The translations under genes and the position numbers were made by a program. A stretch of DNA of 14,285 nt from a virus (taxonomy: Duplodnaviria > Heunggongvirae > Uroviricota > Caudoviricetes): positions 1-14,285 of IMG/VR virus record IMGVR_UViG_2602041568_000006. One strand, 5' to 3'. The notes below the pieces were generated by a model that had not been told where the DNA came from, searched no databases, and worked only from the letters and a program-made list of their open reading frames with translations. Shown here in pieces: positions 1 through 14,285 of the stretch (positions are counted from its first letter, which is position 1; each line of letters starts with the position of its first letter).

Positions 1-552
1 ACGGGCTGCACTTTCCGGTAAGGCATCCGCCAGGTCATTACGAACCAGCCACCAGCACAGTTCCGGCATTGTCACAACGTGACTGTCATCAAAACCGAGA
101 TCCCGACGCACAACAGACAATACCCAGCGGGCACAGTTATCCGTTGCCATTGATTCCAGCCGTTCCGTGAACTGATCGCGCAACTGGTTATCGCAGTGCC
201 AGCACAGACGGATTGCGCCCGGCGCGTGCCGCATTGTGGTCATGTTCTCGCTGTGCCAGTCGGAATGAGGCCACTGACAGCCCTTTTCACGAAGTAACCA
301 GCTTTCAAGACATTCCACGCCACCAGCACGACGGATCACTGCCTCATTGCGGAACACGCCCCGAACGGCAGGATCATCCGCCAGCGGTTGTGATACCGCC
401 GGAACGGCACCACTGGCAAAAGATGAATAACGTTCCGGCTCAGGCTCCAACAGGACACGCCCCTGCATAAACAGGGGCATCAGCTCTGAACCTGGCCTGA
501 ACAATACGATCCCCATACGCGGGGCAATTTCAGGAGTCAGTAGTGCTCTCAC
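1..552 (-). CDS. Partial conserved prophage protein, Cys/His-rich (CQWPH...CWHCDNQ motif), possibly DUF968/YdfU-like; 3' end outside window
   Basis: Hand translation of the minus strand from 480 to 1 gives an open frame of at least 160 codons (MPLFMQGRVLLEPEPERYSS...LCWHCDNQLRDQF...). It is absent from the ORF track because it runs off the window. Start is ambiguous: GTG at 552 with a GAGG SD, or ATG at 516 or 480. Family assignment is from memory only. Confidence 0.45.
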   Translation of the reverse strand, partial: MRALLTPEIAPRMGIVLFRPGSELMPLFMQGRVLLEPEPERYSSFASGAVPAVSQPLADDPAVRGVFRNEAVIRRAGGVECLESWLLREKGCQWPHSDWHSENMTTMRHAPGAIRLCWHCDNQLRDQFTERLESMATDNCARWVLSVVRRDLGFDDSHVVTMPELCWWLVRNDLADALPESAAR

Positions 553-559
553 GGTCACC

Positions 560-1369
560 TCAATGAACGGTATCGAGCAGCTTTAACAGCTCAGGGAATC
601 GGGATTCGAAGAAATGCGGCTGCGTCTCGCGCGGATTTGCGGGACTGGTGATGTTCTTGCCGAACATGCAGCCTTTCGCTGTCAGCGACCAGAATTTTTT
701 GATGTTGTTAATCGCAGTGCGGCTGTATCGTTCACGTTGTTCAACGATCCCCAGCTTCGCCATCTGGTGATATGCCTGATTAGCTGTCAGGCGGATACCA
801 TACTGCTTCAGCAGTGCACTCAATGATAGCGTGGGGCGGCTTGAGCCATCAGGCGCGTCAGCAGGAGCATCAATGGCATAGCGCGGTGCCAGATTCGGTA
901 AGCCAACAGCCTCCTGGAGTTTCTGACAGGCACCAAGCACTGAAGAGTTAGACAGGTTTAACTCCCGGCGCATAAAGTCCAGCAGGATCACGCCAGCCTG
1001 CATCTTGTCAGCAGCCTGTCCGGATAATTTTTCCGGTGCGCTGGTTACCATATCGAAAGTACGGATCACCTTCAGATGGAATGACGGGCTGATCCACATT
1101 GCATAGGCATACACCAGTTCCTTGCAGACATACGTTCCCCGTTCATTTCCCCCATGAATCACACTCACCGGGTCAACACCCAAATTCTGGGTGTTGGTCA
1201 ATTCATGAACAAGCTCAACAGTTTGTTGGCTGGAAAGAAACTTTCCCGGCTCCTTGGTTCTGGCATTTGCACCAGATGCTACTGCTGCGCGATGCAGATC
1301 GTTCAGGCTGTAACGCCCATAAGCATCACGACGAACTTCAATACCATCAATGACCATCAGATTATTCAT
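560..1369 (-). CDS. KilA-N domain protein (antirepressor/Roi-like phage DNA-binding protein)
   Basis: 269-aa ORF with ATG start at 1369 preceded by AAGAGGAGAAA. The N-terminal ~100 aa fit the KilA-N pattern (YSLNDLHRAA...GGNERGTYVCKELVYAYAMWISPSFHLKVI). Confidence 0.7.
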   Translation of the reverse strand: MNNLMVIDGIEVRRDAYGRYSLNDLHRAAVASGANARTKEPGKFLSSQQTVELVHELTNTQNLGVDPVSVIHGGNERGTYVCKELVYAYAMWISPSFHLKVIRTFDMVTSAPEKLSGQAADKMQAGVILLDFMRRELNLSNSSVLGACQKLQEAVGLPNLAPRYAIDAPADAPDGSSRPTLSLSALLKQYGIRLTANQAYHQMAKLGIVEQRERYSRTAINNIKKFWSLTAKGCMFGKNITSPANPRETQPHFFESRFPELLKLLDTVH

Positions 1370-1388
1370 ACTTCGTTTCTCCTCTTAA

Positions 1389-1778
1389 TCAGGCGGCTGC
1401 ACCCGCCGTTTTCTCGTACTTACTGATAGTGATCTCGACCTTCCCTTCCGGGATAACCGGTCCCCACTCCACCAGCATTCTTTTCACCTGACTGTCGTCT
1501 TCCCACACACCCGCGTGGGTCAGGGCGTCAAACAGTGCCTTGTTATAGTTGTCCAGATCGCGGATCCGGTTATCCGGAGGAAACAACACGATCTCCACTG
1601 AAGCAGGTGCCGACGTTGGTTTTGGCAGACGACGTAACTGCTCAACTATTGCTGCGCACGCCGCGCTCTGAAATTTTCGCCCCGCCGCGCTTATCAGGCT
1701 CTTACCAGAAAATGCCCCTTTGTTGGGGTGTCGCCAGTACGTGTTCACGCTGGGCGGAAAAGGCAAGATCAGCTTCAT
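1389..1778 (-). CDS. rusA: Holliday-junction resolvase RusA (crossover junction endodeoxyribonuclease)
   Basis: 129-aa ORF; the N-terminal LPFPPSVNTYW motif, size and acidic residues (DLDN) are typical of RusA. ATGA overlap with the upstream gene at 1775-1778. Confidence 0.8.
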   Translation of the reverse strand: MKLILPFPPSVNTYWRHPNKGAFSGKSLISAAGRKFQSAACAAIVEQLRRLPKPTSAPASVEIVLFPPDNRIRDLDNYNKALFDALTHAGVWEDDSQVKRMLVEWGPVIPEGKVEITISKYEKTAGAAA

Positions 1779-2101
1779 ACTTTCAGGCCCCTCTCATGTA
1801 ACCAGTGGGTTGCACGCAGCCTTGCGTTTTCCTCACCGGCAAGCAGTGCGCGGATAATCCCGACCGCCTCGCTGTCGTCGTCCTTCACCGCGGTATGAAG
1901 CGTTATCCCCCGGGCCACTCCACGCTTTATCGTGATGACGCCTTTTTTCTCCAGTGCGCGAAGATGCTCCACCGCTGCATTCACTGAACGGTATCCCAGC
2001 ATGGTTGCCACCTCCTGATTGGTTGGCGGAAAGCCACGCTCTTTCTGATAAGAAATCAGCATATCCAGCACCTGCTGCTGGCATTGAGTTAATGTCGTCA
2101 T
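1775..2101 (-). CDS. LexA-like winged-helix DNA-binding protein lacking the S24 peptidase domain
   Basis: 108-aa ORF. Residues 5-68 align by eye with the E. coli LexA N-terminal domain (QQQVLDMLISY...PPT..EVA..LGYRS.NAA.EHLRALEKKGVI.I..G.ARGI.L). No Ser/Lys peptidase domain follows. ATGA overlaps at both ends. Confidence 0.7.
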   Translation of the reverse strand: MTTLTQCQQQVLDMLISYQKERGFPPTNQEVATMLGYRSVNAAVEHLRALEKKGVITIKRGVARGITLHTAVKDDDSEAVGIIRALLAGEENARLRATHWLHERGLKV

Positions 2102-2751
2102 GCCGCCATCTCCCTGACCAGTTTTTCCGCCTGCTGGCGAACCTGCGCCAGAAACGCCTCACCACATGCCTCAAGTTCATCGCGCCCGATGTAGCTGATT
2201 GCCGGTCCCTTCCAGGTCTTGTCAAAAACAGCAATAGCACCAGCGAAAAAAGCTCCTGTCGGTACCTGCTTCTCGTCTTTCGGGATAAACCAGACAGGCA
2301 GTTCAAAACCAATACGCCCGCGAATAAAAGCAATATGATCTGCATCTTCCGGCCACCACACTTCGCTGGTGGCAGCTTTGATCAGGAAAACATAGCGCCC
2401 GCCCTTATCACGCATGGCACTGGCATGTTTCATGATGTAACGCATGCCGGTGATGTATTGCCCCTCATGCTGACTGGCGCGGCTGTATGGAGGATTACCA
2501 AAGGCAGCACCTTTAAGCTCCGCAAGGCGTTCTGACCAGTCATGCGCCAGCGCGTTGTCTTCCGCCGTGTAATACGCGGCACATTTGGCGTTATCACCGT
2601 CAGTGAACAGATCCAGAACAAACGGGCCAAACAGGGTGTTAATTCCCCAGAAAATGTTGTCCGGCGTGCGCCACTGATCACCCACTTCCTTCAGTTCATG
2701 GGCTGGTTTGTTCCGCAGTTCCACCAGCTCCTGGCAATATTTATTACTCAT
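2098..2751 (-). CDS. Phage DNA N6-adenine methyltransferase (Dam-type, orphan)
   Basis: NPPY catalytic motif (AAFGNPPYSRA), typical of phage N-6-adenine methyltransferases. Start placed at ATG 2751 (MSNKYCQ...), which overlaps the upstream stop as TAATG; the track's longer 2784 start would overlap the upstream gene. Confidence 0.75.
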   Translation of the reverse strand: MSNKYCQELVELRNKPAHELKEVGDQWRTPDNIFWGINTLFGPFVLDLFTDGDNAKCAAYYTAEDNALAHDWSERLAELKGAAFGNPPYSRASQHEGQYITGMRYIMKHASAMRDKGGRYVFLIKAATSEVWWPEDADHIAFIRGRIGFELPVWFIPKDEKQVPTGAFFAGAIAVFDKTWKGPAISYIGRDELEACGEAFLAQVRQQAEKLVREMAA

Positions 2752-3245
2752 TAAGCCCCCACGTAATTCCCTGACAGATACCACTCTTCACCCGATGCAG
2801 CGCGCTTGCTGCTTTTCCGTAAACACTGCTCACGACGCACCAGAAAATTGTTTCGTTCTGGCTGGGAGTGGCTTTCACGGAATGCCGCCATCCACACCGT
2901 TGCAGCACGACGGTATAGGCCCCTGGACTCCAGTTCTTCCGCCTGGCGGGTCAGGCACAAAATCACCCGGGGATCGTTAGTGCCGACATAGAAATTGCGC
3001 ACAGGTCTGGTTTCACGAACTGGTTGTGGCTCCGGCTCCTGCGCTCTCTCAGTCAGGCGTGGGAAATGTCTGCGTGTATCTCCTTCACAACGGTGAGCCA
3101 CACGCCCACTCTGACGTAACTTGCTTGCTGACTGCAGAACGCGCTGCCGTGAGTAACCTGCAAAAGCATCCGCAATGTCTCCGGAAGTACACCCCGGATG
3201 GGCTTCAATGAATTTCTGAACTTCATTCAAAAGACTCATGATCAC
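2751..3245 (-). CDS. yfdN: YfdN-like prophage protein with N-terminal winged-helix-like region
   Basis: 164-aa ORF, the same length I recall for K-12 CPS-53 YfdN, and it sits next to the methyltransferase and replication-like gene as yfdM/yfdN/yfdO do. The 3245 start is GTG; ATG at 3239 with a GGGGG SD 6 nt upstream is an alternative. Symbol is recalled, not verified. Confidence 0.5.
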   Translation of the reverse strand: MIMSLLNEVQKFIEAHPGCTSGDIADAFAGYSRQRVLQSASKLRQSGRVAHRCEGDTRRHFPRLTERAQEPEPQPVRETRPVRNFYVGTNDPRVILCLTRQAEELESRGLYRRAATVWMAAFRESHSQPERNNFLVRREQCLRKSSKRAASGEEWYLSGNYVGA

Positions 3246-4060
3246 CCCCTGAATCCTGCCGGGATCTGGCTGTAATCCACGTTGTCGTAACTGGCTTTGA
3301 AGTACGGGTCCTCGCGTCTGGCTGCAGATACCGCAGGAACTTCCCAGGATTCTTCGAAATGACGATCCGGACCAAAGAACGTGACAGCCTGTTTCACAAA
3401 TTGTGTGCCGCTGTTACCCATCGCAGATACCCAGCACGAGTAGCGTTTCACACCTTCCAGCATGGTTTCGGGGTTTACCCCCTCATTCAAACGGGCTTTC
3501 CAGGCTTTGAAGGCTGCTGATTTTGAATTGCCACCAGCACGTTTGGGGTATGCCAGCCATGCCTGCTCAAACTCCGGAGAGTATTCCGGTCGGTTTGAAC
3601 GAACTCGCACAGACTCATCAGCAGATGCACCAACAGCTATTGGTTCATTGACTGGTTCTTTGACTGGTTCAAAAGAGTGACTGGTTCTGGGTGAATCTCC
3701 TGCACTACCCCCTGGTGCAACTCCTGCACTACCTGGTGAATTTGCTGCACCAGATAGTGAATTATTTGCACTACCCCCTAGTGAATCTCCTGCACCATCA
3801 AGATGAAGAAGATAGATATTACTTGAGTTACCTTTTTCACCTTTCCGGGTGACTTTTTTTACCAGCCCGGACTCACAGAGGGCCGCAATATGATTCATCA
3901 CAGAACGTTTGCTAATCTCGCACTGGTCAGCAATATGCTGGTAGCTGGGCCAGCACTCACCCTGATCGCTGGCATTATCAGCCAGCTTGATCAGAACCAG
4001 TTTTCGCAATGGATTACCCACTCGAATTTTCATCGCTTTAACCATCAGCTCCATACTCAT
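3242..4060 (-). CDS. Phage replication initiator / replisome organiser-like protein (N-terminal HTH, repeat-rich linker, C-terminal AWLAYPKR domain)
   Basis: 272-aa ORF with GGAGG SD 6 nt upstream of ATG 4060. The N-terminus (NPLRKLVLIKLADNASDQGECWPSYQHIADQCEISKRSVMNHIAAL) is HTH-like, followed by a G/S/A/P low-complexity linker and a C-terminal EFEQAWLAYPKRAGGNSKSAAFKAWKARL motif typical of phage replication proteins. Corresponds in position to the O-like yfdO remnant. Confidence 0.6.
   Translation of the reverse strand: MSMELMVKAMKIRVGNPLRKLVLIKLADNASDQGECWPSYQHIADQCEISKRSVMNHIAALCESGLVKKVTRKGEKGNSSNIYLLHLDGAGDSLGGSANNSLSGAANSPGSAGVAPGGSAGDSPRTSHSFEPVKEPVNEPIAVGASADESVRVRSNRPEYSPEFEQAWLAYPKRAGGNSKSAAFKAWKARLNEGVNPETMLEGVKRYSCWVSAMGNSGTQFVKQAVTFFGPDRHFEESWEVPAVSAARREDPYFKASYDNVDYSQIPAGFRG
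3648..3795. repeat. Mosaic of short direct repeats inside the replication-protein gene, encoding the low-complexity linker
   Basis: GACTGGTTC occurs three times (3649, 3662, 3679); GTGAATCTCCTGCAC twice (3691, 3781); CTCCTGCACTACC twice (3697, 3721). Confidence 0.55.
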
Positions 4061-4281
4061 GCTGCACCTCCGAGATGCTTCATGTTTTTTCCGGAGCGAA
4101 AGGCTATAAGCGGCATACTGACGCGGTAATTACGGCCCAGCGGTTCACAAATCACCTTCTGACATTCACGGTCAACCAGGCTAACACGTAGAACATGCCC
4201 TGCAGGCGTGGTGTACCACTGACCCGGACGAGGACAACGGAAAGTCTGATTGGTAAAACGTTTGAAAATATTCCGGATCAT
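4057..4281 (-). CDS. Hypothetical 74-aa basic protein, translationally coupled within the replication operon
   Basis: ATGA overlaps with the upstream gene (4278-4281) and downstream gene (4057-4060). No family recognised. Confidence 0.45.
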   Translation of the reverse strand: MIRNIFKRFTNQTFRCPRPGQWYTTPAGHVLRVSLVDRECQKVICEPLGRNYRVSMPLIAFRSGKNMKHLGGAA

Positions 4282-5426
4282 TTGCGCCCCCTTACCTCTG
4301 AAGGGTTCAGCGACAAATTTATGAGGCAGGCCAGCGCCGAAGCATCATTAATATAGTCATATAAGCTAACAGCCAGCGGAGATTCGGCTTTTGCCAACAT
4401 AGGATAAAGCTGCTGCAGCCAGACCTGATGAATTGATGAAATGTAGGAACAGAGAACGCTGGCGTTATGTGCAACGTCGCTCGGTACAGCGGGCTTTGAA
4501 AGCTGTTTCTCCATCTGGTTAAAGGCATTGATGTATGCCTCTTTGAACTGGGCAGCACGTTTACCCGTGAAACCCATAGCAAGAAACGCAAAGCCGTCGC
4601 GGGTTATTTGATAGCAAGGTAGTTTGCGGCCTGATGCGTCGATGTACTCACTGAGCTGGAAATTCAGCTCAGTAAATTCGGCAGAGCATTCAAGAGACGC
4701 AATTTTTTGAATGACGTTTTTGTGTTGTTTGCCGAAATAACTAGCAACAGCCAGAGAAGAAGTAACAACTTTGTCTGCAATAATGCAAAGTTCAGGTTGA
4801 ACTAAGGCAGGGATCGTAGCCATGATGGCAGCCTCCGTATGCAATGGATAACTTCCACCACCGGAAACGCCAATTTCGCTGGTGGTGAACTGAGCAGGGT
4901 TGGCGTAACCGGCGCATACGGAAACCGGCGCACCTTTCGGTGCCCCCACCCAGCCCACCATAATTTGGGTATAGCTGAGTTGTAGCAACAAAAAAGACGC
5001 TAACGCGCCAATTGTCGCCGTATGCAATTCCAGGACGCCAATCCCGGCACCCGCTTTATAAGGTGCCTGAACAGTGTAACGTCCCGGAATGGCAGAATCA
5101 ATGTGCTGGTGGTCCTTCACACTCAACAAAATCACGCCTGAATTTCCACAAAGGACTAAAGCACTCATGCGGGTAGTCTTTGCGAAGATAGATAACGCGC
5201 TGTGTTTCTGGCTCCCAACGAATAACATGAACATAAAGTCCTCTTCCGTCACGAAACCAGCGGTTAAGTTCCTGCACAACTCGCCCCCCACAGTCAGGTA
5301 AAGTTCTCTGTGGTTACTTACAGCCAGGTGATTTGGTAATCTGCATTCATGCCGTAACAACAGGTGTGCAGCGACACTGACCACCAGCTGTTGCGACAAA
5401 CGGTTATTTGCCGTTAAACTGTTCAT
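4278..5426 (-). CDS. Rha-family phage regulatory protein; Rha domain begins at internal Met (ATG 4823, GGAGG SD) after an uncharacterised ~200-codon in-frame N-terminal extension
   Basis: Continuous 382-codon ORF. Residues 202-290 (MATIPALVQPELCIIADKVVTSSLAVASYFGKQHKNVIQKI...EFTELNFQ...RDGFAFLAMGFTGKRAAQFKEAYINAFNQME) match the Phage_pRha pattern. A strong GGAGG lies 8 nt upstream of the internal ATG at 4823. The N-terminal 200 aa are A/G/S/L/V/H-rich and poorly charged. The 5426 ATG overlaps the upstream stop as ATGA. Confidence 0.5.
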   Translation of the reverse strand: MNSLTANNRLSQQLVVSVAAHLLLRHECRLPNHLAVSNHRELYLTVGGELCRNLTAGFVTEEDFMFMLFVGSQKHSALSIFAKTTRMSALVLCGNSGVILLSVKDHQHIDSAIPGRYTVQAPYKAGAGIGVLELHTATIGALASFLLLQLSYTQIMVGWVGAPKGAPVSVCAGYANPAQFTTSEIGVSGGGSYPLHTEAAIMATIPALVQPELCIIADKVVTSSLAVASYFGKQHKNVIQKIASLECSAEFTELNFQLSEYIDASGRKLPCYQITRDGFAFLAMGFTGKRAAQFKEAYINAFNQMEKQLSKPAVPSDVAHNASVLCSYISSIHQVWLQQLYPMLAKAESPLAVSLYDYINDASALACLINLSLNPSEVRGRK

Positions 5427-6058
5427 GCGTTAGTTTCTCCACAGACACAAAACGCCACGACGCCCGGAGCTGCACACTCGCGGGCGTTACTCTTTTCCGG
5501 CGCACAAAAAACACGAAATAACAGTGTTAAATGCTCCTGCCACTTCGCCATTACTTGGTAGCTGTTCTCTTCGATTTGCTCACGCTCAGCTTGGTCAATA
5601 ACTCCATCAGCAGTTGCCTTGCGTAAGTACTGGGAATGCTTGCCAATCCATTCTATTGACTCCATCAGCCGCTGATTAATGTCACCATTGTCAATATCAT
5701 CAATGACCACCAGCGGCACAAACACCCCATTACTACGACGGGCTATTGCATCCGTTACATGCCTGGTACCACTGGCATCCTGTAAAACCATGGCCCACTC
5801 AAGTGGAAAAATTTGATCCCCACCGCTACGCAGTCTGTTATGCAATTGATCTTTTGCTGGGGTGATATCATCAGATTTATACAAACCAAGAATTTCTGCT
5901 GCTTCCTCATAGCCATGAGGTAAATCAGCAATCGTTCTTCGTATTGCTGCCACCAGCCATGCTGGTTGCTTATCAACTTTCCATTCAGGTTCTTTACCCA
6001 CGTTTAAGCCCTCATATCTGTGGTTTCTGTAAATCGATTTATCCATTAGATTTTTCAT
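5423..6058 (-). CDS. CII-like / YdaT-family early regulatory protein (position-based assignment)
   Basis: ORF immediately downstream of the Cro-like gene. The track start at 6115 is GTG; in-frame ATGs at 6058 (MKNLMDKS) and 6046 are more plausible and overlap the 3' end of cro. Function is inferred from position in the operon, not from motifs. Confidence 0.45.
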   Translation of the reverse strand: MKNLMDKSIYRNHRYEGLNVGKEPEWKVDKQPAWLVAAIRRTIADLPHGYEEAAEILGLYKSDDITPAKDQLHNRLRSGGDQIFPLEWAMVLQDASGTRHVTDAIARRSNGVFVPLVVIDDIDNGDINQRLMESIEWIGKHSQYLRKATADGVIDQAEREQIEENSYQVMAKWQEHLTLLFRVFCAPEKSNARECAAPGVVAFCVCGETNA

Positions 6059-6239
6059 AAAGCTCAGGTTTAAATGGCAACCGTCCGCAAGTTCTATATG
6101 CAGCCTCTGCTGCACGTCCTTTTGGAATTAACTGGCCAGGACGGTTTCGCCACTGATAAACGGCTTCAGTTGTTATGCCGAAAAAAGCAGCAACTTTCTC
6201 AATGCTGCCGAAGTAGCTTTCGATATCGTCAGTCGTCAT
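6039..6239 (-). CDS. Cro-like HTH repressor (YdaS/Cro family)
   Basis: 66-aa ORF divergent from the cI-like gene. Contains an HTH-like segment (IEKVAAFFGITTEAVYQWRNR) and has a GGAGG(G) SD just upstream of ATG 6239. Confidence 0.7.
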   Translation of the reverse strand: MTTDDIESYFGSIEKVAAFFGITTEAVYQWRNRPGQLIPKGRAAEAAYRTCGRLPFKPELYEKSNG

Positions 6240-6250
6240 ATGCCCTCCAA

Positions 6251-6315
6251 ACTAAGTTTTATTAGATGTTAATTATCAATCTATCTTAGGTCAATAAAAA
6301 CTAAGATTACTTAGT
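6251..6315. promoter_or_regulatory. OR-like tripartite operator between cro and cI: 16-bp sites of the ACTAAG-N4-CTTAGT family
   Basis: Sites at 6251-6266 (ACTAAGTTTTATTAGA), 6275-6290 (degenerate, ATCAATCTATCTTAGG) and 6300-6315 (ACTAAGATTACTTAGT, perfect 6-bp arms), spaced about 24-25 bp centre to centre as in lambda OR1-3. Confidence 0.45.
6266..6294 (-). promoter_or_regulatory. Candidate pR-like sigma70 promoter for cro (TTGACC-N17-TAACAT on the minus strand)
   Basis: -35 TTGACC at 6294-6289 and -10 TAACAT at 6271-6266 with a 17-bp spacer; overlapped by the operator half-sites. Confidence 0.35.
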
Positions 6316-6336
6316 AATTAAAGAAATGGTGCTCCT

Positions 6337-6963
6337 ATGGAAACGGTTGGTCAGCGTATAAAAGCTCTGAGAAGAGTTACCAGAACGTCCCAGAAAGAAT
6401 TGGGTAAATTTTGTGGAGTAAGTGACGTTGCTGTGGGGTACTGGGAGAAAGACATCAATGTCCCTGGTGGGGAAGCACTTTCAAAATTAGCGAAGTTCTT
6501 CAATACGTCAATAGATTACATTCTTTATGGTGCGGAGTTTGAAGGCAAACTCGTCACAAACATGCGCAGAGTTCCTGTAATCTCGTGGGTTCAGGCTGGG
6601 CAGTTTACTGAGTGCAGGACAGCAGAAGTGTTTAGTGAAGTAGACAAGTGGGTAGATACATCATTAAAGATTGGTGATAACTCATTTGCATTGGAGGTTA
6701 AAGGCGACTCCATGACTAACCCTAACGGCCTCCCAACAATACCAGAAGGCGCAACAGTGATTGTAGATCCTGATGCAGAACCCCGGCATGGAAAAATAGT
6801 CATCGCTAGACTTGATGGAACAAACGAAGCCACAGTAAAAAAATTAGTTATCGATGGCCCTCAAAAGTTTTTAGTGCCATTAAATCCCCGGTACCCCAAC
6901 ATCCCGATCAATGGTAATTGCCTCATCATTGGTGTAGTCAAAGGAGTTCAATACGAACTCTAG
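6337..6963 (+). CDS. CI-like prophage repressor (N-terminal XRE HTH, C-terminal S24 LexA-like autopeptidase domain)
   Basis: 208-aa ORF. N-terminal HTH (QRIKALRRVTRTSQKELGKFCGVSDVAVGYWEK) and C-terminal S24 motifs (GDSMTNP...; VKKL Lys). No obvious SD, suggesting a leaderless or poorly translated mRNA as for lambda cI. Confidence 0.85.
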   Translation: METVGQRIKALRRVTRTSQKELGKFCGVSDVAVGYWEKDINVPGGEALSKLAKFFNTSIDYILYGAEFEGKLVTNMRRVPVISWVQAGQFTECRTAEVFSEVDKWVDTSLKIGDNSFALEVKGDSMTNPNGLPTIPEGATVIVDPDAEPRHGKIVIARLDGTNEATVKKLVIDGPQKFLVPLNPRYPNIPINGNCLIIGVVKGVQYEL

Positions 6964-6991
6964 CCCCCCTTTTCTCTAACCAAAACACCGA

Positions 6992-7045
6992 ACTAAGAAA
7001 AGTTTGGTGTTTTCTCTTGCCATCAAAACTAAGTTAAGTTAGATT
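6992..7045 (+). promoter_or_regulatory. Operator-like sites downstream of cI (ACTAAGAAAAGTTTGG, ACTAAGTTAAGTTAGA) with a possible TTGCCA-N17-TAGATT promoter: candidate OL/pL
   Basis: Sites at 6992-7007 and 7028-7043 share the ACTAAG half-site with the OR sites. Possible -35 TTGCCA at 7017-7022 and -10 TAGATT at 7040-7045. Confidence 0.3.
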
Positions 7046-7117
7046 TTATATCAAAGATAACGAACAGGCAGGACGCCCACGAAGTAGCCGCCGGTGGCGG
7101 GATGATTCGTTAGCAAC

Positions 7118-7154
7118 AAAAAAGCGCCCTACAGGACGCTTTGCTCTTTAAAAA
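7118..7154. terminator. Hairpin with minus-strand U-tract (terminator for the 7308-7802 gene), abutting a boxA-like TGCTCTTTAAAAA on the plus strand
   Basis: Stem 7124-7129 / 7134-7139 with loop TACA. On the minus strand it forms 6 bp including one G-U and is followed by UUUUUU (complement of 7118-7123). On the plus strand the stem has a C-A mismatch and is followed by TTGCTCTTTAAAAA (7141-7154). Confidence 0.5.
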
Positions 7155-7307
7155 TCAGTAACCCTCACTTTGGGCCTGGACCTGGTGGCCTGGGACGAGG
7201 AGGAATATGAAAAGGCTCTATTGGTCGACTCATTATCCAATCCTATTATGTCTCATTTCTTCGGTTTCGGTGGTTTCGGCTTCGGAGGTACATGTCCGTG
7301 AACTGGA

Positions 7308-7802
7308 TTATGCTTGTTGGTCATCATTAATATCCGTTAGTTCATTCTCTAGAGGTAGATCTCCCGCACACCAAGCTATAAATTTTTCTTTGGTTGTTAA
7401 ATCGTACTTAGTTGGAACACCAGCAAAAATACAGGCCCGAATGAAAGCCGCTCGTTCAAGTGATTTCCATGGATTACTATCAGTATCTTGGATTTTTAAA
7501 TACCTAGCTTGCAACTGATCTTCAGGAAGGGTATCAGACTCAATCAGCAGTCTTTTGTAATGCCTCGCTTGCTCTTTAGACATTCCAGCCTCCTGGCCAA
7601 ACTGATAGACCAACTGAAGAACCGAAAGTACGGCAACAAACAAACCGAAAATAAATAAATTACTGTACGGGGCGAAAACTGAAAAACCGAGAACGATTAA
7701 CATCAACGTTATTAATTTATCAATGCGAGTTAACAACGTGTAATTCATCTTCTCCAATACATAAGAGTAGTGAACATAAAATTTATAATCGTCTCTGGTC
7801 AT
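7308..7802 (-). CDS. AT-rich membrane protein with an N-terminal two-helix hairpin and soluble acidic C-terminal domain; candidate superinfection-exclusion/abortive-infection moron
   Basis: 164-aa ORF with two predicted TM helices (LITLMLIVLGFSVFAPY, LFIFGLFVAVLSVLQLVYQF). AT-rich third codon positions, own orientation opposite to the flanking genes, and a downstream minus-strand terminator at 7118-7139. Overlaps the antisense plus ORF 7207-7518. Confidence 0.5.
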   Translation of the reverse strand: MTRDDYKFYVHYSYVLEKMNYTLLTRIDKLITLMLIVLGFSVFAPYSNLFIFGLFVAVLSVLQLVYQFGQEAGMSKEQARHYKRLLIESDTLPEDQLQARYLKIQDTDSNPWKSLERAAFIRACIFAGVPTKYDLTTKEKFIAWCAGDLPLENELTDINDDQQA

Positions 7803-7901
7803 ATTAGTCTCAGTTTTCCTTGGGTGGTTTTGGAGGAACTGGAGGCTTTTGTCTTAACGGCACATGCCTCTCCTCATACTTATCTACACATAGATCCATA
7901 T

Positions 7902-7958
7902 AAATCCTTATCGTTGTTGGGGAGGGTTACATAATAACCAAATCCTTGTTGTTGGGGA
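7902..7958. repeat. Direct repeat AAATCCTT(ATC)GTTGTTGGGGA, two copies about 38 bp apart, in the non-coding region upstream of the early-left genes
   Basis: Copies at 7902-7923 and 7940-7958, identical apart from a 3-nt insertion. Confidence 0.5.
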
Positions 7959-8185
7959 ATAACCAGGTCCACCTCGCCTGATGTGGCTAAAAGCAGGCAC
8001 ATAACAGCTAAGTATTTTCAACCAGAGAGAATCCTTAGCGTTGTGGTGAATGCGGCTCAGCGCACGCGGGTTAAGGTTGAGGCTGACAGTCGACCTTCTG
8101 TGGATACCCACCCGCCTGGTGTGCAACCTTCGCCAGGCACCGGGAGGCACCCGGCACCACAACTTTATGCTGTGTGTAGTCCTGG

Positions 8186-8231
8186 CGGTACCAGTTTGTA
8201 CCCTTGCTTCCGGCTGGTACCGTCCTTTTTA
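8186..8231 (+). terminator. Terminator-like hairpin (9-bp stem CGGTACCAG / CTGGTACCG, then TCCTTTTT) within the GC-rich leader upstream of the yfdP-like gene
   Basis: Perfect inverted repeat 8186-8194 / 8214-8222 with a 19-nt loop, followed by a T-run at 8225-8230. Other GC hairpins lie at 8074-8096 and 8140-8154. Confidence 0.35.
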
Positions 8232-8367
8232 CAAAACAGAGAAGAGCATCACCGGACGACGGGCTCATAACCCAATCCATCCGGGCGGCTGCCACCGCAG
8301 GTGTTCTTCTCTGTTTTGTGGAGAAACTAATCGGCCTTGCAGGGTCGATATGATGAGGAGCAGCAAA

Positions 8368-8730
8368 ATGGCTAGCGAACGCAGTACTGATGTGCAGGCA
8401 TTTATCGGGGAGCTGGACGGCGGCGTATTTGAAACCAAAATCGGCGCAGTTCTCAGTGAAGTCGCTTCCGGTGTGATGAACACGAAAACCAAAGGTAAGG
8501 TCTCACTCAACCTGGAAATCGAACCATTTGATGAGAACCGTGTGAAAATCAAACACAAACTCTCATATGTTCGCCCGACTAACCGTGGGAAAATTTCCGA
8601 AGAAGACACCACCGAAACGCCGATGTATGTCAATCGCGGTGGTCGCCTGACTATTCTGCAGGAAGACCAGGGACAATTACTGACTCTTGCCGGTGAGCCT
8701 GACGGAAAACTCCGCGCAGCAGGTCATTAA
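8368..8730 (+). CDS. yfdP: YfdP-like early-left prophage protein
   Basis: ATG at 8368 preceded by GAGGAG 7 nt upstream gives 120 aa, the length I recall for K-12 YfdP, and it is followed by the yfdQ/R/S-like genes in the same order. The upstream in-frame extension of the track ORF lies in a GC-rich structured region. Confidence 0.55.
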   Translation: MASERSTDVQAFIGELDGGVFETKIGAVLSEVASGVMNTKTKGKVSLNLEIEPFDENRVKIKHKLSYVRPTNRGKISEEDTTETPMYVNRGGRLTILQEDQGQLLTLAGEPDGKLRAAGH

Positions 8731-8795
8731 TATCGTTCTTAATTAACTGATTATTTATCTCATCACTGAATATCTTAATATAGTGAGGACTTATT

Positions 8796-9620
8796 ATGTC
8801 TCAGAACTTAGACGCAACCGCAATTAATCAAATCCATGCCCTTATTTCTGCTCAGGGTGTTAATGACATTATCAGTAAGATTGGTGCCGATGCTGTGGCA
8901 TTGCCTGAGAATTTCCGCATTCATGATCTGGAAAAATTTAATTTAAATCGCTTCCGTTTCCGTGGTGCACTTTCCACTGCCAGCATCGATGACTTTACCC
9001 GTTATTCTAAAGATCTTGCAGATGAAGGCACCCGCTGCTTTATCGATGCCGATAATATGCGAGCCGTCAGTGTGCTTAACCTGGGTACTATTGATGAACC
9101 AGGTCACGCAGATAACACCGCCACTCTCAAACTGAAAAAGACAGCACCGTTCTCTGCTCTGTTGTCTGTTAATGGCGAGCGTAACTCCCAGAAGTCACTG
9201 GCAGAATGGATTGAAGACTGGGCCGACTACCTTGTGGGCTTTGATGCTAATGGTGACGCCATTCAGGCAACCAAAGCGGCTGCGGCGATCCGTAAAATCA
9301 CAATTGAAGCGAACCAGACCGCTGATTTTGAAGACAATGACTTCAGCGGCAAACGCTCCCTGATGGAGTCTGTCGAAGCGAAGACCAAAGACATTATGCC
9401 AGTGGCATTTGAATTTAAATGCGTTCCGTTTGAAGGTCTGAAAGAACGTCCGTTTAAATTACGCCTCAGAATTATCACTGGCGATCGTCCTGTACTGGTT
9501 CTGCGCATTATTCAGCTGGAGGCGGTGCAGGAAGAAATGGCTAACGAATTTCGTGATCTGCTTGTTGAGAAATTCAAGGACAGCAAAGTAGAAACCTTTA
9601 TTGGTACTTTCACCGCCTGA
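8796..9620 (+). CDS. yfdQ: YfdQ-like protein (DUF2303-type prophage protein)
   Basis: 274-aa ORF with a GAGG SD 7 nt upstream of ATG 8796; length and position match my recollection of YfdQ in CPS-53. Confidence 0.6.
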
Positions 9621-9747
9621 TTTCATTACTGCAAATGCCCCTGCGGGGGCATTTATGGAAACGTAATTTACTCAATAATCGCCGGATGGTGAGGGATTCT
9701 TTTTACCAGAATTCAGCGCGGTGCAGCGCATATACGTGGAGAACAAA

Positions 9748-10284
9748 ATGTCATTTATCAAAACTTTTTCTGGGAAGCATTTTTATTATGACAGGATAAA
9801 TAAAGACGACATCGATATTAACGATATCGCGGTTTCCCTTTCAAATATCTGTCGCTTTGCCGGTCATCTTTCGCACTTCTACAGCGTCGCCCAACATGCG
9901 GTTCTTTGCAGCCAGCTGGTGCCGCAGGAATTTGCTTTTGAAGCGTTAATGCATGATGCAACAGAAGCGTATTGCCAGGACATTCCCGCACCACTGAAAC
10001 GCCTTCTTCCTGACTATAAACGGATGGAAGAAAAAATAGACGCCGTAATCCGTGAGAAATACGGGTTACCACCGGTTATGAGTACGCCCGTGAAATATGC
10101 CGATCTCATCATGCTGGCAACCGAACGCCGCGATCTCGGGCTTGATGATGGCTCTTTCTGGCCTGTACTGGAAGGTATCCCGGCAACAGAGATGTTCAAC
10201 GTGATTCCACTGGCACCAGGCCATGCCTACGGGATGTTTATGGAACGCTTTAACGAATTATCGGAGTTACGCAAATGCGCATGA
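9748..10284 (+). CDS. yfdR: HD-domain phosphohydrolase, YfdR-like 5'-deoxynucleotidase
   Basis: HD-domain motifs (SVAQHAV...ALMHDATEAY). ATG at 9748 with GGAG SD gives 178 aa, the length recalled for YfdR. The track start at 9721 is GTG. Confidence 0.7.
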   Translation: MSFIKTFSGKHFYYDRINKDDIDINDIAVSLSNICRFAGHLSHFYSVAQHAVLCSQLVPQEFAFEALMHDATEAYCQDIPAPLKRLLPDYKRMEEKIDAVIREKYGLPPVMSTPVKYADLIMLATERRDLGLDDGSFWPVLEGIPATEMFNVIPLAPGHAYGMFMERFNELSELRKCA

Positions 10285-10637
10285 ATGTTTTCGAAATGGA
10301 AGGATTTCTTCGCGGGAAATGTGTACCGCGAGATCTGAAAGTGAATGAAACGGATGCTGAATACCTGGTGCGTAAATTTGATGCGCTTGAAGCTAAATGT
10401 GCAGCACTGGAAAACAAAGTAATACCAGTGTCAGCTGAACTGCCGCCAGCGAATGAAAGTGTTCTGTTATTTGATGCTAATGGAGAAGGCTGGCTGATTG
10501 GCTGGCGTTCTCTCTGGTATACATGGGGGCAAAAAGAAACCGGAGAATGGCAGTGGACATTTCAGGTCGGGGACCTTGAAAACGTCAACATCACTCACTG
10601 GGCAGTAATGCCAAAAGCACCGGAGGCTGGAGCATAA
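10275..10637 (+). CDS. yfdS: YfdS-like protein
   Basis: 120-aa ORF overlapping the end of the HD-domain gene; TAATG overlap with the next gene. Length and order match my recollection of YfdS. Confidence 0.5.
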   Translation: MRMNVFEMEGFLRGKCVPRDLKVNETDAEYLVRKFDALEAKCAALENKVIPVSAELPPANESVLLFDANGEGWLIGWRSLWYTWGQKETGEWQWTFQVGDLENVNITHWAVMPKAPEAGA

Positions 10638-11446
10638 TGACCACATTTACCGATAAAGAACTGATTAAAGAAATCAAAGAACGAATCAGCAGCATGGACG
10701 TGCGAGACAATGTTGAGCGCCGTGCTTATGAAATTGCTCTGGCATCGCTGGAAGAGGATCCGGTGGCATGGCTGCATTCAGACAATGGCTTAGGTATTCC
10801 GGCAATAACCAGGAGTAAAAACATTGCTGACAGTTGGTTATCAAAGGGCTGGTATGTTCAGCCGCTATATATAGCTAAGCCAGTGCCGGTGGTGCCAGAT
10901 GCTCGTCCGTCTTTAAATAATGGCATAGTCGGTTTTGATGAAGGCTGGAACGCCTGCCGCGCTGCCATGCTCTATGGTGCCGTACCTGCAAGCCAGGCTT
11001 ACAAGTTGCCACAAACGCAGTTTAAACAGGTTGCTGACCTCTACGAAATGCAATTTGATGACGGTCGCACTTGTGCCTTTCACACTGATGCGCAAAAGGC
11101 TGTGCAATGGCTTCAGGCGTGCGACGGAAACAGGGTTCAGGAATACGTTAAGCTGGAACGATTGCAGAACGCACTGTCTGGCAACTCTCCGGTAACTCCG
11201 GATGGTTGGGTTATGGTGCCGAAGAGACTAACAGCCGAGAACGGCGCTAAGGGGGCGCTATCCGGTGAATTTTCAGAAACTACGTTTATAAGCTGCCTGG
11301 AATGCTTTGGCGATGATGATTGCGATACCTGTGACGGGAGCGGACGTATTGAAATTAAAGTGCCAGTCACGTGGTCGACCATAAAATCTATCTGGGATAA
11401 AGGTATCGAGTATTTTGCAGCAAAACCATCACAAGAGGTGAAGTGA
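10637..11446 (+). CDS. Hypothetical early-left protein with C-terminal DnaJ-type CxxCxGxG zinc-finger-like motif
   Basis: 269-aa ORF with the motif CLECFGDDDCDTCDGSG near the C-terminus. Translationally coupled at both ends. Possibly the full-length counterpart of the shorter K-12 yfdT. Confidence 0.55.
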   Translation: MTTFTDKELIKEIKERISSMDVRDNVERRAYEIALASLEEDPVAWLHSDNGLGIPAITRSKNIADSWLSKGWYVQPLYIAKPVPVVPDARPSLNNGIVGFDEGWNACRAAMLYGAVPASQAYKLPQTQFKQVADLYEMQFDDGRTCAFHTDAQKAVQWLQACDGNRVQEYVKLERLQNALSGNSPVTPDGWVMVPKRLTAENGAKGALSGEFSETTFISCLECFGDDDCDTCDGSGRIEIKVPVTWSTIKSIWDKGIEYFAAKPSQEVK

Positions 11447-12018
11447 TGAACAACTTAATGATCGACCTTGAGACGATGGGGAAAAATAAGGATGCACCGA
11501 TCGTTTCCATTGGCGCGGTGTTCTTCACTCCAGAAACCGGAGACATCGGACAAGAATTCTATACGGTTGTTAGCCTGGAAAGTGCTATGGGGCAAGGAGC
11601 TACACCTGACGGCGATACCATCCTGTGGTGGTTGAAACAAAGCCCTGAAGCACGAGCTGCAATCTGTATTGATGATACTTTGTCGATCAGCGATGCTCTC
11701 TCAGAACTAAATCATTTCATTAACCGGCACGCAGACAATACGAAATATTTAAAAGTCTGGGGTAACGGAGCCACCTTCGACAACGTAATTTTACGTGGAG
11801 CTTATGAGCGAGCAGGACAAATCTGCCCGTGGGCATACTGGAATGACCACGATGTACGCACGATCGTTACGCTTGGGCGTTCCATCGGATTCGACCCCAA
11901 AATGGACATGCCTTTCGATGGCGAACGGCACAACGCCCTGGCTGATGCCCGTCATCAGGCAAAATATGTTTCCGCTATCTGGCAGAAATTAATTCCTGCC
12001 ACCAGCACAGAATTATGA
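11446..12018 (+). CDS. DEDDh-family 3'-5' exonuclease (DnaQ-like fold)
   Basis: Exo I motif (MIDLETMG) and a C-terminal H-x4-D motif (HNALADARHQ). Start placed at ATG 11446 (AAGAGG SD 7 nt upstream), overlapping the upstream TGA; the track start at 11443 is GTG. Confidence 0.7.
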   Translation: MNNLMIDLETMGKNKDAPIVSIGAVFFTPETGDIGQEFYTVVSLESAMGQGATPDGDTILWWLKQSPEARAAICIDDTLSISDALSELNHFINRHADNTKYLKVWGNGATFDNVILRGAYERAGQICPWAYWNDHDVRTIVTLGRSIGFDPKMDMPFDGERHNALADARHQAKYVSAIWQKLIPATSTEL

Positions 12019-12054
12019 TTTTCCCGGGTGCAGCCGGTTTTGATGGAGAAAATT

Positions 12055-12336
12055 ATGAACACCTTGTTTTTACTGATGGCTGAATTCAATACCCCTAACA
12101 TTGAACTCTCAGCAGTTAGCCAAAAGTACTTTGGCATGAGTCCAGCCACGGCAGAAGCAAAAGCAAACGCTTGTAAGTTGCCCGTTCCAACATATCGCAT
12201 CGGCACATCACAAAAAGCAAAACGTTGCATCAATATTCAGGATCTTGCGGAATACATAGACAAAAGACGAGAAGAAGGACGTATCGAGTGGGAACAGGTC
12301 AGAACAAGCAAACAGAAGGGCAAAGAACATCACTAA
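12055..12336 (+). CDS. PrtN-family / excisionase-like small DNA-binding protein
   Basis: Start at ATG 12055 with a GGAG SD 6 nt upstream gives a 93-aa product (MNTLFLLMAEF...KLPVPTYRIGTSQKAKRCINIQDLAEYIDKRREEG) resembling the pyocin-activator PrtN / phage excisionase family. The track ORF begins at GTG 12028. Ends at the terminator. Confidence 0.55.
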   Translation: MNTLFLLMAEFNTPNIELSAVSQKYFGMSPATAEAKANACKLPVPTYRIGTSQKAKRCINIQDLAEYIDKRREEGRIEWEQVRTSKQKGKEHH

Positions 12337-12368
12337 ATAAAAAACCCGCCTAAAGGCGGGTTTTCAAA
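12336..12368. terminator. Bidirectional rho-independent terminator between the convergent early-left operon and the accessory cassette
   Basis: A-run 12336-12344, stem CCCGCC 12345-12350, loop TAAA, stem GGCGGG 12355-12360, then TTTT 12361-12364. The U-tract is stronger when read on the minus strand. Confidence 0.7.
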
Positions 12369-12383
12369 AAGCACCAGCTATGA

Positions 12384-12557
12384 TCATGCTGCTTTGCGAC
12401 GACGAAGCTTACCCTGCTGCTCTTTACCAGAGACAGTAGCGTGAGTGAACGCATTATGAGCAGCCTTCATCAGAACTTCAACAGCAGCACCCATACCTGC
12501 GAATGCTTTCATTGTGTCGAACTTAACCTGTGGCTTGGTTGCTTTTTGATCTTCCAT
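12384..12557 (-). CDS. Unlisted 57-aa ORF (MEDQKATKPQVKFDTMKAFAGMGAAVEVLMKAAHNAFTHATVSGKEQQGKLRRRKAA), third gene of the accessory operon
   Basis: Hand translation. ATG at 12557-12555 is preceded by AGGAG 6 nt upstream; TGA at 12386-12384 is followed directly by the terminator. Below the ORF-track length cutoff. Predicted helical with a basic C-terminal tail. Confidence 0.4.
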   Translation of the reverse strand: MEDQKATKPQVKFDTMKAFAGMGAAVEVLMKAAHNAFTHATVSGKEQQGKLRRRKAA

Positions 12558-12596
12558 AGAAAACTCCTGAAGTTATACCGAAACAATTCCTGTTGT

Positions 12597-13016
12597 TTAC
12601 TCATCATCAATAGATGATACGCAATATTTATTTTTAAATTTAAGGTTCTTTGGCGTAACTTCATCAGAGATATCAAAACCGTCCAGAATTCTATTGAATG
12701 TAGCTTCTGGCATATCATCATGAACAGAAATCTCACCCGATCGCTGCTTTCTAACCATGTTATCCACTCGCCAAATTATAGCTTCAGCGTAAACAACATA
12801 ACTTGGATGCTTGATAAAGCGATGATCACCAGAATTCAAGATGCAAGACGGATCGTGGGGGACACCATCCTTGATACTAGAAATATTAACAACTAAAACA
12901 CAATAACAATCGTTAACGGGGTAATAAACAGGATCATTACAAATCACATGAAGATGATTGCATGGCCCAGTTGGGGCAAGCACAGTTCCTTTCCTGTATG
13001 GCTGATAATCCGTCAT
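12597..13016 (-). CDS. 139-aa Cys/His-rich protein of unrecognised family, translationally coupled to the Panacea-like gene; candidate toxin/effector
   Basis: ATGA overlap with the upstream gene at 13013-13016, AT-rich codon usage, and no motif I recognise (GPCNHLHVICNDPVYYPVNDCYC...). The toxin role is inferred only from gene order (socAB-like). Confidence 0.5.
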   Translation of the reverse strand: MTDYQPYRKGTVLAPTGPCNHLHVICNDPVYYPVNDCYCVLVVNISSIKDGVPHDPSCILNSGDHRFIKHPSYVVYAEAIIWRVDNMVRKQRSGEISVHDDMPEATFNRILDGFDISDEVTPKNLKFKNKYCVSSIDDE

Positions 13017-13585
13017 GATAATTGCAAAGAAAATTCCTTAAGTTTCTGAGATTCTTCCATTTTGCCAATTATGCGATTAGCCTCATCCTCGCTTTTACCC
13101 TCACTGATCAGCATTTCTTTCAGGTCTATAGGCTTACGAGAATTGCCAGGATCGTGCCACTCTGGACAAACGCTTTCTAAATGCGTCATATTTGCGAGAT
13201 CAAATCGGTTCATATGCCCATACCGAGAATAGATTTCATCTAAAATCCGGATATCTGCACGACTCAATTCATCAAAGACCTCGTCTGCATCCATTTCCCT
13301 CGGATCTGAACGCAACGATACATTATGCCCGTTCGTCTCTATCAAGTTGTACCAGTAGTCACCAATGCCTTCAGCCTTACCGCGAATCAAGTTCAGCGTA
13401 TTCGACATGACTGGTCCAAATTTCATAGAGTAAAGGCTATCTTCGCCGATCATCCTGCCATGCTTCAAAATCGACTGGCGGTTAGACAGATAGAGCAACT
13501 TCATCAATTTCAGATATGCCATGCGCCCACCTCGCTTAAGAAGTAGGTATGCAGCCATTTGAGCTACTTTTTCTTCGCAAAACAT
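13013..13585 (-). CDS. Panacea-domain (DUF4065, SocA/GepA-like) protein; candidate antitoxin
   Basis: 190-aa ORF with GAGG SD 9 nt upstream of ATG 13585. Matches the Panacea pattern as I recall it (AAYLLLKRGG...LKLMKLLYLSNRQSILKHGRMIGEDSLYSMKFGPVMSNTL) and has the C-terminal THLESVCPEW-type motif. Confidence 0.6.
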   Translation of the reverse strand: MFCEEKVAQMAAYLLLKRGGRMAYLKLMKLLYLSNRQSILKHGRMIGEDSLYSMKFGPVMSNTLNLIRGKAEGIGDYWYNLIETNGHNVSLRSDPREMDADEVFDELSRADIRILDEIYSRYGHMNRFDLANMTHLESVCPEWHDPGNSRKPIDLKEMLISEGKSEDEANRIIGKMEESQKLKEFSLQLS

Positions 13586-14285
13586 ATAAGAAACCTCAAA
13601 GATAGTGAACTTTATAATTATTCTCGATACTTCATGGGTTGCTTCATCACCAACACGAGCTTCTTATGGTGTGCCCACTTGGGCCTAAGCAACCAGTTAC
13701 CTCGTTTGTCAAGTTTATAGCTGGCTTTAACCATGGTCAATTGAAGTGATGAGCAAATGATGCTTTCTAAGAATAACAGGTTCCCAATAGGCTCCCACAA
13801 AGTGTATAACTAGTTGTTTTTCAAAAACGGTACATCCTATCGAGCATTGGTGCAACGCTAAACCGACCACTCCAGTGAACGTCAGTTTTTTCAGGCATTG
13901 CGCTGGTTTGGTTGATTTTTTGCATTTCAGAATTACCGTGCATTTTCAAATGTAGAGATTATTTTATCGATATATCATGGGGTTATGTTATTCAGCATCA
14001 CTATTCAGGAGGCTCAATAGCGGGGTACTATACCATAACAACAGGAAGCGCCTGTCTCATTGCAAAAGAAAATTGAGATCCTCTCAAGGCATGAAGCTCT
14101 CACGAAGTGATGGAAATAATCTTATTAGCCGTTAACTTTGTTAAGGCCAATGATAAACAATCCAGGTTCGACGATAAATAAAAAATCACACATTAAACTC
14201 TGGTGATATATCTCCCTGCTAATAGCATTGATAGAGAAAAAAGGGTAATGACTCCAACTTATTGATAGTGTTTTATGTTCAGATA

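Follow-up and report, generated by a model that had tools for sequence, protein, structure and literature searches.

A candidate early-left promoter followed by a conserved leader RNA and a boxA element in a lambdoid prophage without a recognizable N gene

In phage lambda, the left operator (OL) lies over the sigma-70 early-left promoter (pL) downstream of cI, the early transcript carries a boxA within nutL, and, with the help of N, transcription reads through to the recombination and excision genes. Some lambdoid phages manage without N. The genomes of SfII, SfIV, and SfV have been reported to lack N, cII, and cIII (SfIV genome paper, PMC3851460). HK022 and HK639 have put RNAs, promoter-proximal structured RNAs of about 70 nt at the start of the pL transcript, with terminators downstream. 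These need neither boxA nor Nus factors and act through the zinc-binding domain of the beta' subunit of RNA polymerase. To our knowledge, the e14 element of Escherichia coli K-12 has no N protein either. Here we analyze 14,285 nucleotides of viral DNA (positions 1 to 14,285 of IMG/VR record IMGVR_UViG_2602041568_000006; hereafter "the window") that, judging from their sequence, come from a lambdoid E. coli prophage resembling SfV, SfIV, and CPS-53. Directly downstream of its cI-type repressor gene, positions 6992 to 7156 hold a candidate pL with an operator, a conserved leader RNA, and a boxA.

A second group of related systems relies on boxA and host factors. The leader of the E. coli rRNA operons (rrn), with its order boxB-boxA-boxC and its factors NusB, NusE, NusA, NusG, SuhB, and S4, has a boxA core identical to that of the window (UGCUCUUUA), and there too a structured RNA precedes boxA. 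As in the window, the boxA sites of rrn, CRISPR, and suhB stand where a long untranslated transcript begins, and Nus factors acting with boxA shield long untranslated CRISPR transcripts and rRNA from Rho (PMC7665894). The locus analyzed here differs from rrn in that the RNA upstream of boxA is unlike rrn boxB and the element is phage-borne and apparently repressor-controlled; a boxC was not recognized after boxA, where no formal comparison with boxC was made.

With lambda, the locus shares an operator over a promoter downstream of cI in the same orientation, a boxA in the predicted early transcript, and the need for readthrough to recombination and excision genes. Unlike in lambda, a structured RNA precedes boxA, the first gene downstream is a convergent inserted gene rather than N, and one operator is convincing where lambda has three. 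Neither boxB nor N was found. The sequence downstream of boxA contains no conserved hairpin and diverges right after ...AATC, and an arginine-rich scan of all open reading frames (ORFs) in the window gave only small nested ORFs and none that is N-like. A sequence-only reading of this DNA had proposed an OL/pL-nutL-N layout; its OL/pL part and its boxA hold up, and its nut site lacks boxB and its N is missing. We also considered the Nus-dependent mEp phages (PMC11893012) as members of the same group and rejected them, since they use an N-like protein and form a different group.

Promoter and operators downstream of cI

The region in and after cI contains these features:
6337-6963, plus strand: gene for the cI-type repressor, with Pfam matches to HTH_3 and Peptidase_S24
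6982-7019, plus strand: intrinsic terminator of cI, a 13-bp stem with the loop AAGAAA, followed by UUUUCUCUU
6992-7007: weak operator-like site ACTAAGAAAAGTTTGG, which departs from the operator pattern at one position and has a single good half-site
7017-7045, plus strand: candidate pL, TTGCCA (7017-7022), a 17-nt spacer, and TAGATT (7040-7045), with a predicted start at about 7052
7028-7043: OL1-like operator ACTAAGTTAAGTTAGA, an exact pattern match that spans the spacer and the -10 of the candidate pL

The sequence-only reading had pointed to two ACTAAG-type operator-like sites, and the hexamer is indeed present at 6992-6997 and 7028-7033. By itself, ACTAAG is not enriched in the window (7 observed, 4.5 expected). 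The 15-nt pattern ACTAAG-N5-TTAG, scanned with at most one mismatch, gave five matches at four sites where 0.58 were expected, and five or more appeared in 1 of 200 shuffles. All four sites flank cI: two lie in the cro-cI intergenic region (6251 and 6300) and two directly after cI (6992 and 7028). The site at 7028-7043 is convincing. It equals the right operator (OR) site at 6251-6266 in 13 of 16 positions and is kept in relatives of the same immunity, save for the first base in two variants (contigs L004 and L020). The site at 6992 may be a weak or doubtful operator, or a coincidence, because its ACTAAG forms the apex of the cI terminator hairpin and its second half-site is poor. That hairpin (6982-7012) folds with -15.6 kcal/mol (z -4.67), and none of 200 shuffles was as good. 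On the other side of cI, the OR region has three sites 24-25 bp apart (6251-6266, 6275-6290, which is weak, and 6300-6315), and a perfect palindrome, ACTAAGATTACTTAGT, covers the likely cI promoter and not pR, a layout unlike that of lambda.

The promoter scan scored TTGCCA-N17-TAGATT with 9 of 12 consensus matches. Because this match and that of boxA are both near chance in the window, their significance rests on the relatives and not on the window alone. Two exact patterns, taken from the leader and from the hairpin described below, retrieved more than 200 viral contigs. Heteroimmune relatives contain at least six unrelated promoter/operator modules, TTGACA-N16-CATAAT and TTGACA-N17-TAAATT among them, and each of them leads into the same leader, with about 10-20 nt between the end of the -10 and helix P1 or the conserved sequence. 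SfIV has a different repressor and GTACC-type operators, which occur only at its OR and directly after its cI (7 found, 0.24 expected; 0 of 200 shuffles). Directly after the SfIV cI terminator stand a TTGACA-N16-CATAAT promoter and this operator type, and next comes the leader as in window positions 7059-7156. The order cI, promoter, leader, early genes recurs in YeP1 (Yersinia), AH07 (Pantoea), ZF40 (Pectobacterium), and e14 of K-12, and the neighborhoods inspected usually have, on the same strand, a cI-like gene whose end lies about 100-250 nt upstream. Since unlike promoter modules join one leader, immunity-specific sequence gives way to shared sequence at the transcription start. A break at this point is the classical lambdoid pattern.

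Megablast and blastn comparisons with phages show that the locus is mosaic. Identity to mEp460_4F5 is 99.8% over positions 6200-7099 and to vB_EcoS-569R4 94% over 6200-7156, while SfIV, with its different repressor, matches 7059-7156 at 84%. Positions 7157-7904 are cargo absent from all three phages. The following stretch, 7905-8500, is common to 569R4 and SfIV, both of which have other repressors, and the match of mEp460_4F5 begins at 7969.

Given these comparisons, we regard it as highly probable that 7017-7045 is a repressor-controlled early-left promoter, one that is in itself ordinary for a lambdoid prophage. The promoter and operator sets of the heteroimmune relatives thus back two suggestions of the sequence-only reading, that TTGCCA-N17-TAGATT is a possible pL and that early-left transcription starts here and runs convergent to a membrane gene. 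Alternatively, 7017-7045 may hold no functional promoter, and early-left transcription may start downstream of 7803, for example near an STnc100-like element at about 8010 that presumably has its own promoter; the match at 7017-7045 is weak and, at such a density, expected by chance. Yet the relatives have near-consensus promoters at the homologous position, and the pattern scan found no operator-type site in 7803-8367. As this region is common to heteroimmune phages, it would be unable to give immunity-specific control, which makes a downstream start very unlikely.

A conserved leader RNA between promoter and boxA

The sequence-only reading missed the main conserved feature of the locus, a structured leader of about 70 nt that lies between the promoter and boxA:
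7055-7117, plus strand: conserved promoter-proximal leader RNA motif, found with our covariance model R1 at 66.8 bits (E 3e-19)

Covariation lends good support to a three-way-junction RNA with a closing helix P1 (7059-7064 paired with 7105-7110), a helix P2 (GGC-AGGAC-GCC in the window), and a hairpin P3, whose loop in intact copies reads GGCRUAUGAAKR. When this model was tested on 41 distinct sequences, 91.7% of cells were paired, against 23-45% with the partners slid by 1-3 columns; ten pairs vary on both sides, and 0 of 500 shuffles reached the observed values. RNAalifold independently recovers all three helices, with P1 shortened and shifted at its inner end. In some members P1 is fully replaced (AACGAA/UUCGUU, AGCGAA/UUCGCU, CCACC/GGUGG, and, in a T5-like phage, AGGAAC/GUUCCU), and the T5-like copy keeps the P2 stem with a different loop. 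Further features of the class are its invariant core, GCCCACGAAGUAGCC, and the P3 loop GGCRUAUGAA, which is conserved.

The leader is present in SfV, SfII, SfIV, ST64B, ZF40, Yersinia and Pantoea phages, e14 of E. coli K-12, and T5-like Providencia phages; R1 matches YeP1, AH07, ZF40, mEp237, and the T5-like Providencia phage PR1. The scores of intact copies range from 80 to 97 bits. The K-12 copy in e14 scores 78.6 bits and lies between ymfK (cohE) and ymfJ (NC_000913.3 1202106-1202180; L365 7107-7181, minus strand), where it is unannotated. Upstream of it is a TTGACA-N16-CATAAT promoter with SfIV-type operators; boxA is absent. In the virulent, T5-like Providencia phage vB_PreS_PR1 (L227 1960-2090), a promoter, the leader motif, and CGCTCTTTAAAAA lie in the terminal repeat, ahead of genes in the region of the DNA-transfer genes A2 and A1, which shows that the leader also occurs outside temperate lambdoid phages. 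When species genomes were scanned with a 15-mer, most matches were chance ones in GC-rich genomes and four were real. Within the window, we found no second copy in the pR operon; one weak plus-strand match at 2285-2350 (14.8 bits) is probably due to chance.

Compared with a 98%-identical E. coli prophage in strain W224N, the window copy lacks 11 nt (TATGAATGACC) from the loop and the 3' arm of P3, the deletion point being at 7098-7099, and this loss may impair it. The deletion junction is absent from the 5,426 complete E. coli genomes searched.

Rfam 15 gave no match at E values up to 10 for either the window copy or the intact SfIV copy, the phage and K-12 records examined contain no annotation of the leader, and a literature search by motif sequence strings returned no relevant paper. 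The motif is thus new to Rfam, to the K-12 annotation, and to these phage records, and is well supported by covariation. The put RNAs resemble it in position and size; they consist of two tandem stems, in contrast to the three-way junction here. We derived HK022 putL from NC_002166, with the numbering checked against PMC9378689; the HK639 record has an annotated putL-like RNA. R1 had no match in the put-bearing loci of HK022 (8 kb) and HK639 (16 kb), and blastn found no similarity, so that no membership of the leader in the put family is detectable.

The leader might instead be a 5' untranslated region that stabilizes the transcript, a processing site, or the body of an early small RNA (sRNA) of about 95 nt that ends at the hairpin 7121-7142, with no role in elongation control. 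The conserved sequence begins near the transcription start and extends slightly beyond this hairpin with its U-rich 3' sequence, P1 forms at most about 8 nt from the predicted 5' end, and early leaders of prophages can yield sRNAs. Nonetheless, many loci have no hairpin, and their leader leads straight into ribosome-binding sites and genes, while the plus-strand hairpin of the window is weak (-8.8 kcal/mol, with an interrupted U tract). Moreover, about 25 unpaired leader bases are invariant from Escherichia to Providencia, which a simple stabilizer would not need. We consider such a role improbable.

The boxA element, the hairpin, and the convergent gene

Past the leader, the hairpin and boxA are followed by a gene on the opposite strand:
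7121-7142, minus strand: intrinsic terminator of the convergent gene, in the scan nine pairs followed by TTTTTTGTTGC
7142-7154, plus strand: boxA, TGCTCTTTAAAAA, with the core 7143-7153 an exact match to GYTCTTTAANA
7802..7308, minus strand: gene for a 164-amino-acid protein, convergent to pL and annotated by the Prokaryotic Genome Annotation Pipeline (PGAP); member of phrog_6315 (E 9e-64)

As the sequence-only reading had seen, boxA is one mismatch away from its rrn counterpart (TGCTCTTTAACAA), with which it shares 12 of 13 positions. The first nine bases are those of E. coli rrn boxA, and the sole mismatch, at position 11, falls on the N of GYTCTTTAANA, the functional boxA consensus of Baniulyte et al. 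(bioRxiv 10.1101/091223). Judged from the crystal structure (PMC3177189), position 11 seems to lie outside the bases contacted by NusB-NusE. The element is about 90 nt from the predicted transcription start. The strict consensus occurs once in the window against 0.09 expected, and at least once in 17 of 200 shuffles. Its variation was followed in 119 loci for whose retrieval only the hairpin sequence was used. In these loci, positions 2-9 are invariant; three different bases occur at position 1, C or A at position 11, and, in one variant (3 loci), G at position 10. Positions 1 and 11 are those that the functional consensus leaves free.

The hairpin, which the sequence-only reading had listed with its role unrecognized, appears to be mainly the terminator of the minus-strand gene, although it is bidirectional in form, because it folds better on the minus strand (-14.3 kcal/mol, against -8.8 on the plus strand; a U.G pair on the former is a C.A mismatch on the latter) and is followed there by TTTTTTGTTGC. 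On the plus strand the U tract is interrupted. The convergent gene is, by its homologies, real: it belongs to phrog_6315 and has homologs of 31-37% identity in Fels-2 and in Yersinia, Providencia, and Elizabethkingia phages. Read from the translation, its product has two hydrophobic segments that resemble membrane-spanning helices. PADLOC found no defense match for this protein or its neighbors. We take the gene to be an inserted accessory gene (moron). The slot between pL and the yfdP leader is variable, with the 164-amino-acid gene here and other cargo in other phages.

Could boxA be a by-product of this hairpin? The sequence-only reading had raised the possibility of an artefact of A/T tracts beside a terminator. 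A related explanation accepts the promoter and operator and denies boxA a function: hairpin and flanks would be a bidirectional terminator of convergent cargo, carried along by recombination, and the leader would serve another role. In this regard, the hairpin is better on the minus strand, with its T6 tail there, the strict boxA always co-occurs with minus-strand cargo, and the match alone has a probability of about 0.09 in the window. On the other hand, the 17 nt past the hairpin stem are conserved across at least five cargo junctions, and the sequences split into at least five cargos right after ...AATC of boxA (a short AATCTGG is conserved after boxA in many relatives). Nearly all variation falls on the free positions 1 and 11, the G at position 10 of one variant being the remainder. 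Furthermore, boxA follows the leader where there is no hairpin, namely in two T5-like Providencia phages, which have TTGCTT-N17-TATACT, the leader, 8 nt, and then CGCTCTTTAAAAA, and in contigs L357 and L359. As boxA thus stands after the leader in several contexts, some of them hairpin-free, these comparisons indicate a real conserved element rather than a terminator-flank artefact, and we give a functionless boxA only a small chance.

Of 162 distinct leader contexts, 80 have a strict boxA in the 300 nt that follow the leader (0.01 expected); two of the three scans that supplied this set selected for hairpin or boxA. The boxA-less leader loci that we inspected lead directly into translated plus-strand genes. 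Downstream of the element, the minus-strand ORF is longer than the plus-strand ORF in 44 of 44 distinct strict-boxA loci and in 32 of 70 loci without boxA; the 44 loci represent only about five cargo types and are not independent. That boxA binds NusB-NusE and matters to the phage is, in our estimate, slightly favored. Considered as a whole, the unusual part of the locus would be the combination of a widespread, covarying, unannotated leader RNA with a consensus boxA in N-less phages.

The path to yfdP and a possible antitermination signal

Downstream of boxA, the plus strand holds the following:
7197-7203 and 7207-7518, plus strand: Shine-Dalgarno sequence GAGGAGG and an ORF of 103 codons, probably not a gene
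8010-8232, plus strand: STnc100-like sRNA or leader element (RF02076, 43.1 bits, gathering score 47, E 1.3e-7)
8368-8730, plus strand: yfdP, the first conserved early-left gene (PGAP annotation in L004; phrog_204)

The sequence-only reading had put forward the ORF at 7207, with its GAGGAGG-N3-ATG, as a possible gene, remarking that it has no arginine-rich motif and overlaps the membrane gene in antisense. We find the good ribosome-binding sequence, the lack of the motif, and the overlap as described: positions 7308-7518, two thirds of the ORF, are antisense to the minus-strand gene. The ORF is nevertheless probably spurious, because it belongs to no PHROG family, is absent from the PGAP calls, and lies opposite a gene conserved at the protein level. 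Pfam gave only one weak HapK match below threshold. Its available copies are closely alike, with no diverged ones among them.

This leaves about 1.3 kb from about 7052 to yfdP without a credible translated plus-strand gene, a stretch that takes in the antisense of the 164-amino-acid gene and the terminator-like end of the STnc100-like element, a long stem followed by CUUUUU. The latter element lies in a conserved non-coding stretch before yfdP that is common to phages of different immunity. Untranslated and antisense RNA is a target of Rho. A transcript from pL would need antitermination, because it must cross this untranslated and partly antisense stretch and the STnc100-like terminator on its way to yfdP and, farther along, to the genes for recombination and excision. 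Two kinds of repeats were seen along the way: direct repeats GTTGTTGGGGA (7913 and 7948) and AATAACC... (7933 and 7958) upstream of the start of the minus-strand gene, and a 25-nt inverted repeat in the yfdP leader (8231-8255 with 8295-8319).

We propose that leader and boxA form an N-independent antitermination signal. Repressor at 7028-7043 would cover the spacer and -10 of pL. Transcription would start at about 7052, the leader RNA (7055-7117) would be made at once, and boxA (7142-7154) would follow. Together they could recruit Nus factors of the host (NusB/NusE and partners), modify RNA polymerase, or do both, and early-left transcription may thereby withstand Rho and perhaps also intrinsic terminators. 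Transcription of the minus-strand gene would be kept out of pL and cI chiefly by the hairpin that separates leader and boxA. We rate the chances as about even that 6992-7156 is, in this sense, the cI-controlled pL and transcript start of an N-less SfV/SfIV/e14-type lambdoid prophage, with leader and boxA loading Nus factors and resisting Rho.

Several observations weigh against this proposal. The promoter match of the window is not above chance (3 found in 2.9 kb, 4.5 expected from shuffles). Helix P2 has no both-side variation and is thus not proven, and the leader folds no more stably than shuffled sequence (z -0.7), so that the case for its structure rests on covariation. The window copy is without the conserved P3 loop. 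About half of the leader-bearing loci have no boxA, and therefore either the leader works without boxA or the two elements have separate roles. Complexes of the rrn type are known to counter Rho and not strong intrinsic terminators, for which reason boxA alone may not pass the STnc100-like terminator. Finally, a suhB boxA within about 50 nt of the start codon represses expression (bioRxiv 10.1101/091223).

This last point suggests another explanation, in which boxA plays a negative role as in suhB: the Nus complex at boxA would block translation initiation and promote Rho-dependent attenuation, keeping early-left expression low or timed. In the window, SfIV, and the T5-like phage, 42-53 nt separate boxA from the next ATG, which is the geometry used for finding suhB-type boxA sites. 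In the window, however, that ATG opens the ORF at 7207, which is probably no gene, and the excision and recombination genes lie far beyond untranslated antisense RNA, where the phage needs readthrough. We therefore think a suhB-like role has a low probability.

As for the leader RNA itself, that it is an antitermination element is possible, with the odds somewhat against it. More tentatively still, 7055-7117 could be a damaged copy of an undescribed, widespread class of phage leader RNAs giving protein-free processive antitermination, alone or with boxA, which we consider rather unlikely. Such a class would be a further RNA-based one beside put and EAR, shared by N-less lambdoid phages, e14, and T5-like phages. 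The proposal offers a hypothesis on how N-less phages (SfII, SfIV, SfV, and e14) pass early-left terminators and Rho, and it can be tested in E. coli K-12. If true, it would extend boxA/Nus antitermination, as in rRNA, suhB, and CRISPR arrays, to phage early operons without N, and it would explain how accessory genes can sit in the opposite orientation right after pL while the genes downstream are not cut off.

The remaining observations concern the immunity region and the pR operon. The cro gene lies at 6239..6039 on the minus strand, and in the 98%-identical W224N prophage, PGAP names the repressor "LexA family protein". Two Rfam families score above their gathering scores on the minus strand, C4 antisense RNA at 4965..4878 (80.7 bits) and isrK at 5066..4990 (61.2 bits). 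Both lie inside a mechanically called ORF (4278..5426) of the pR operon, and the pair suggests that the prophage carries a c4 immunity RNA module of the P1/P7 type.

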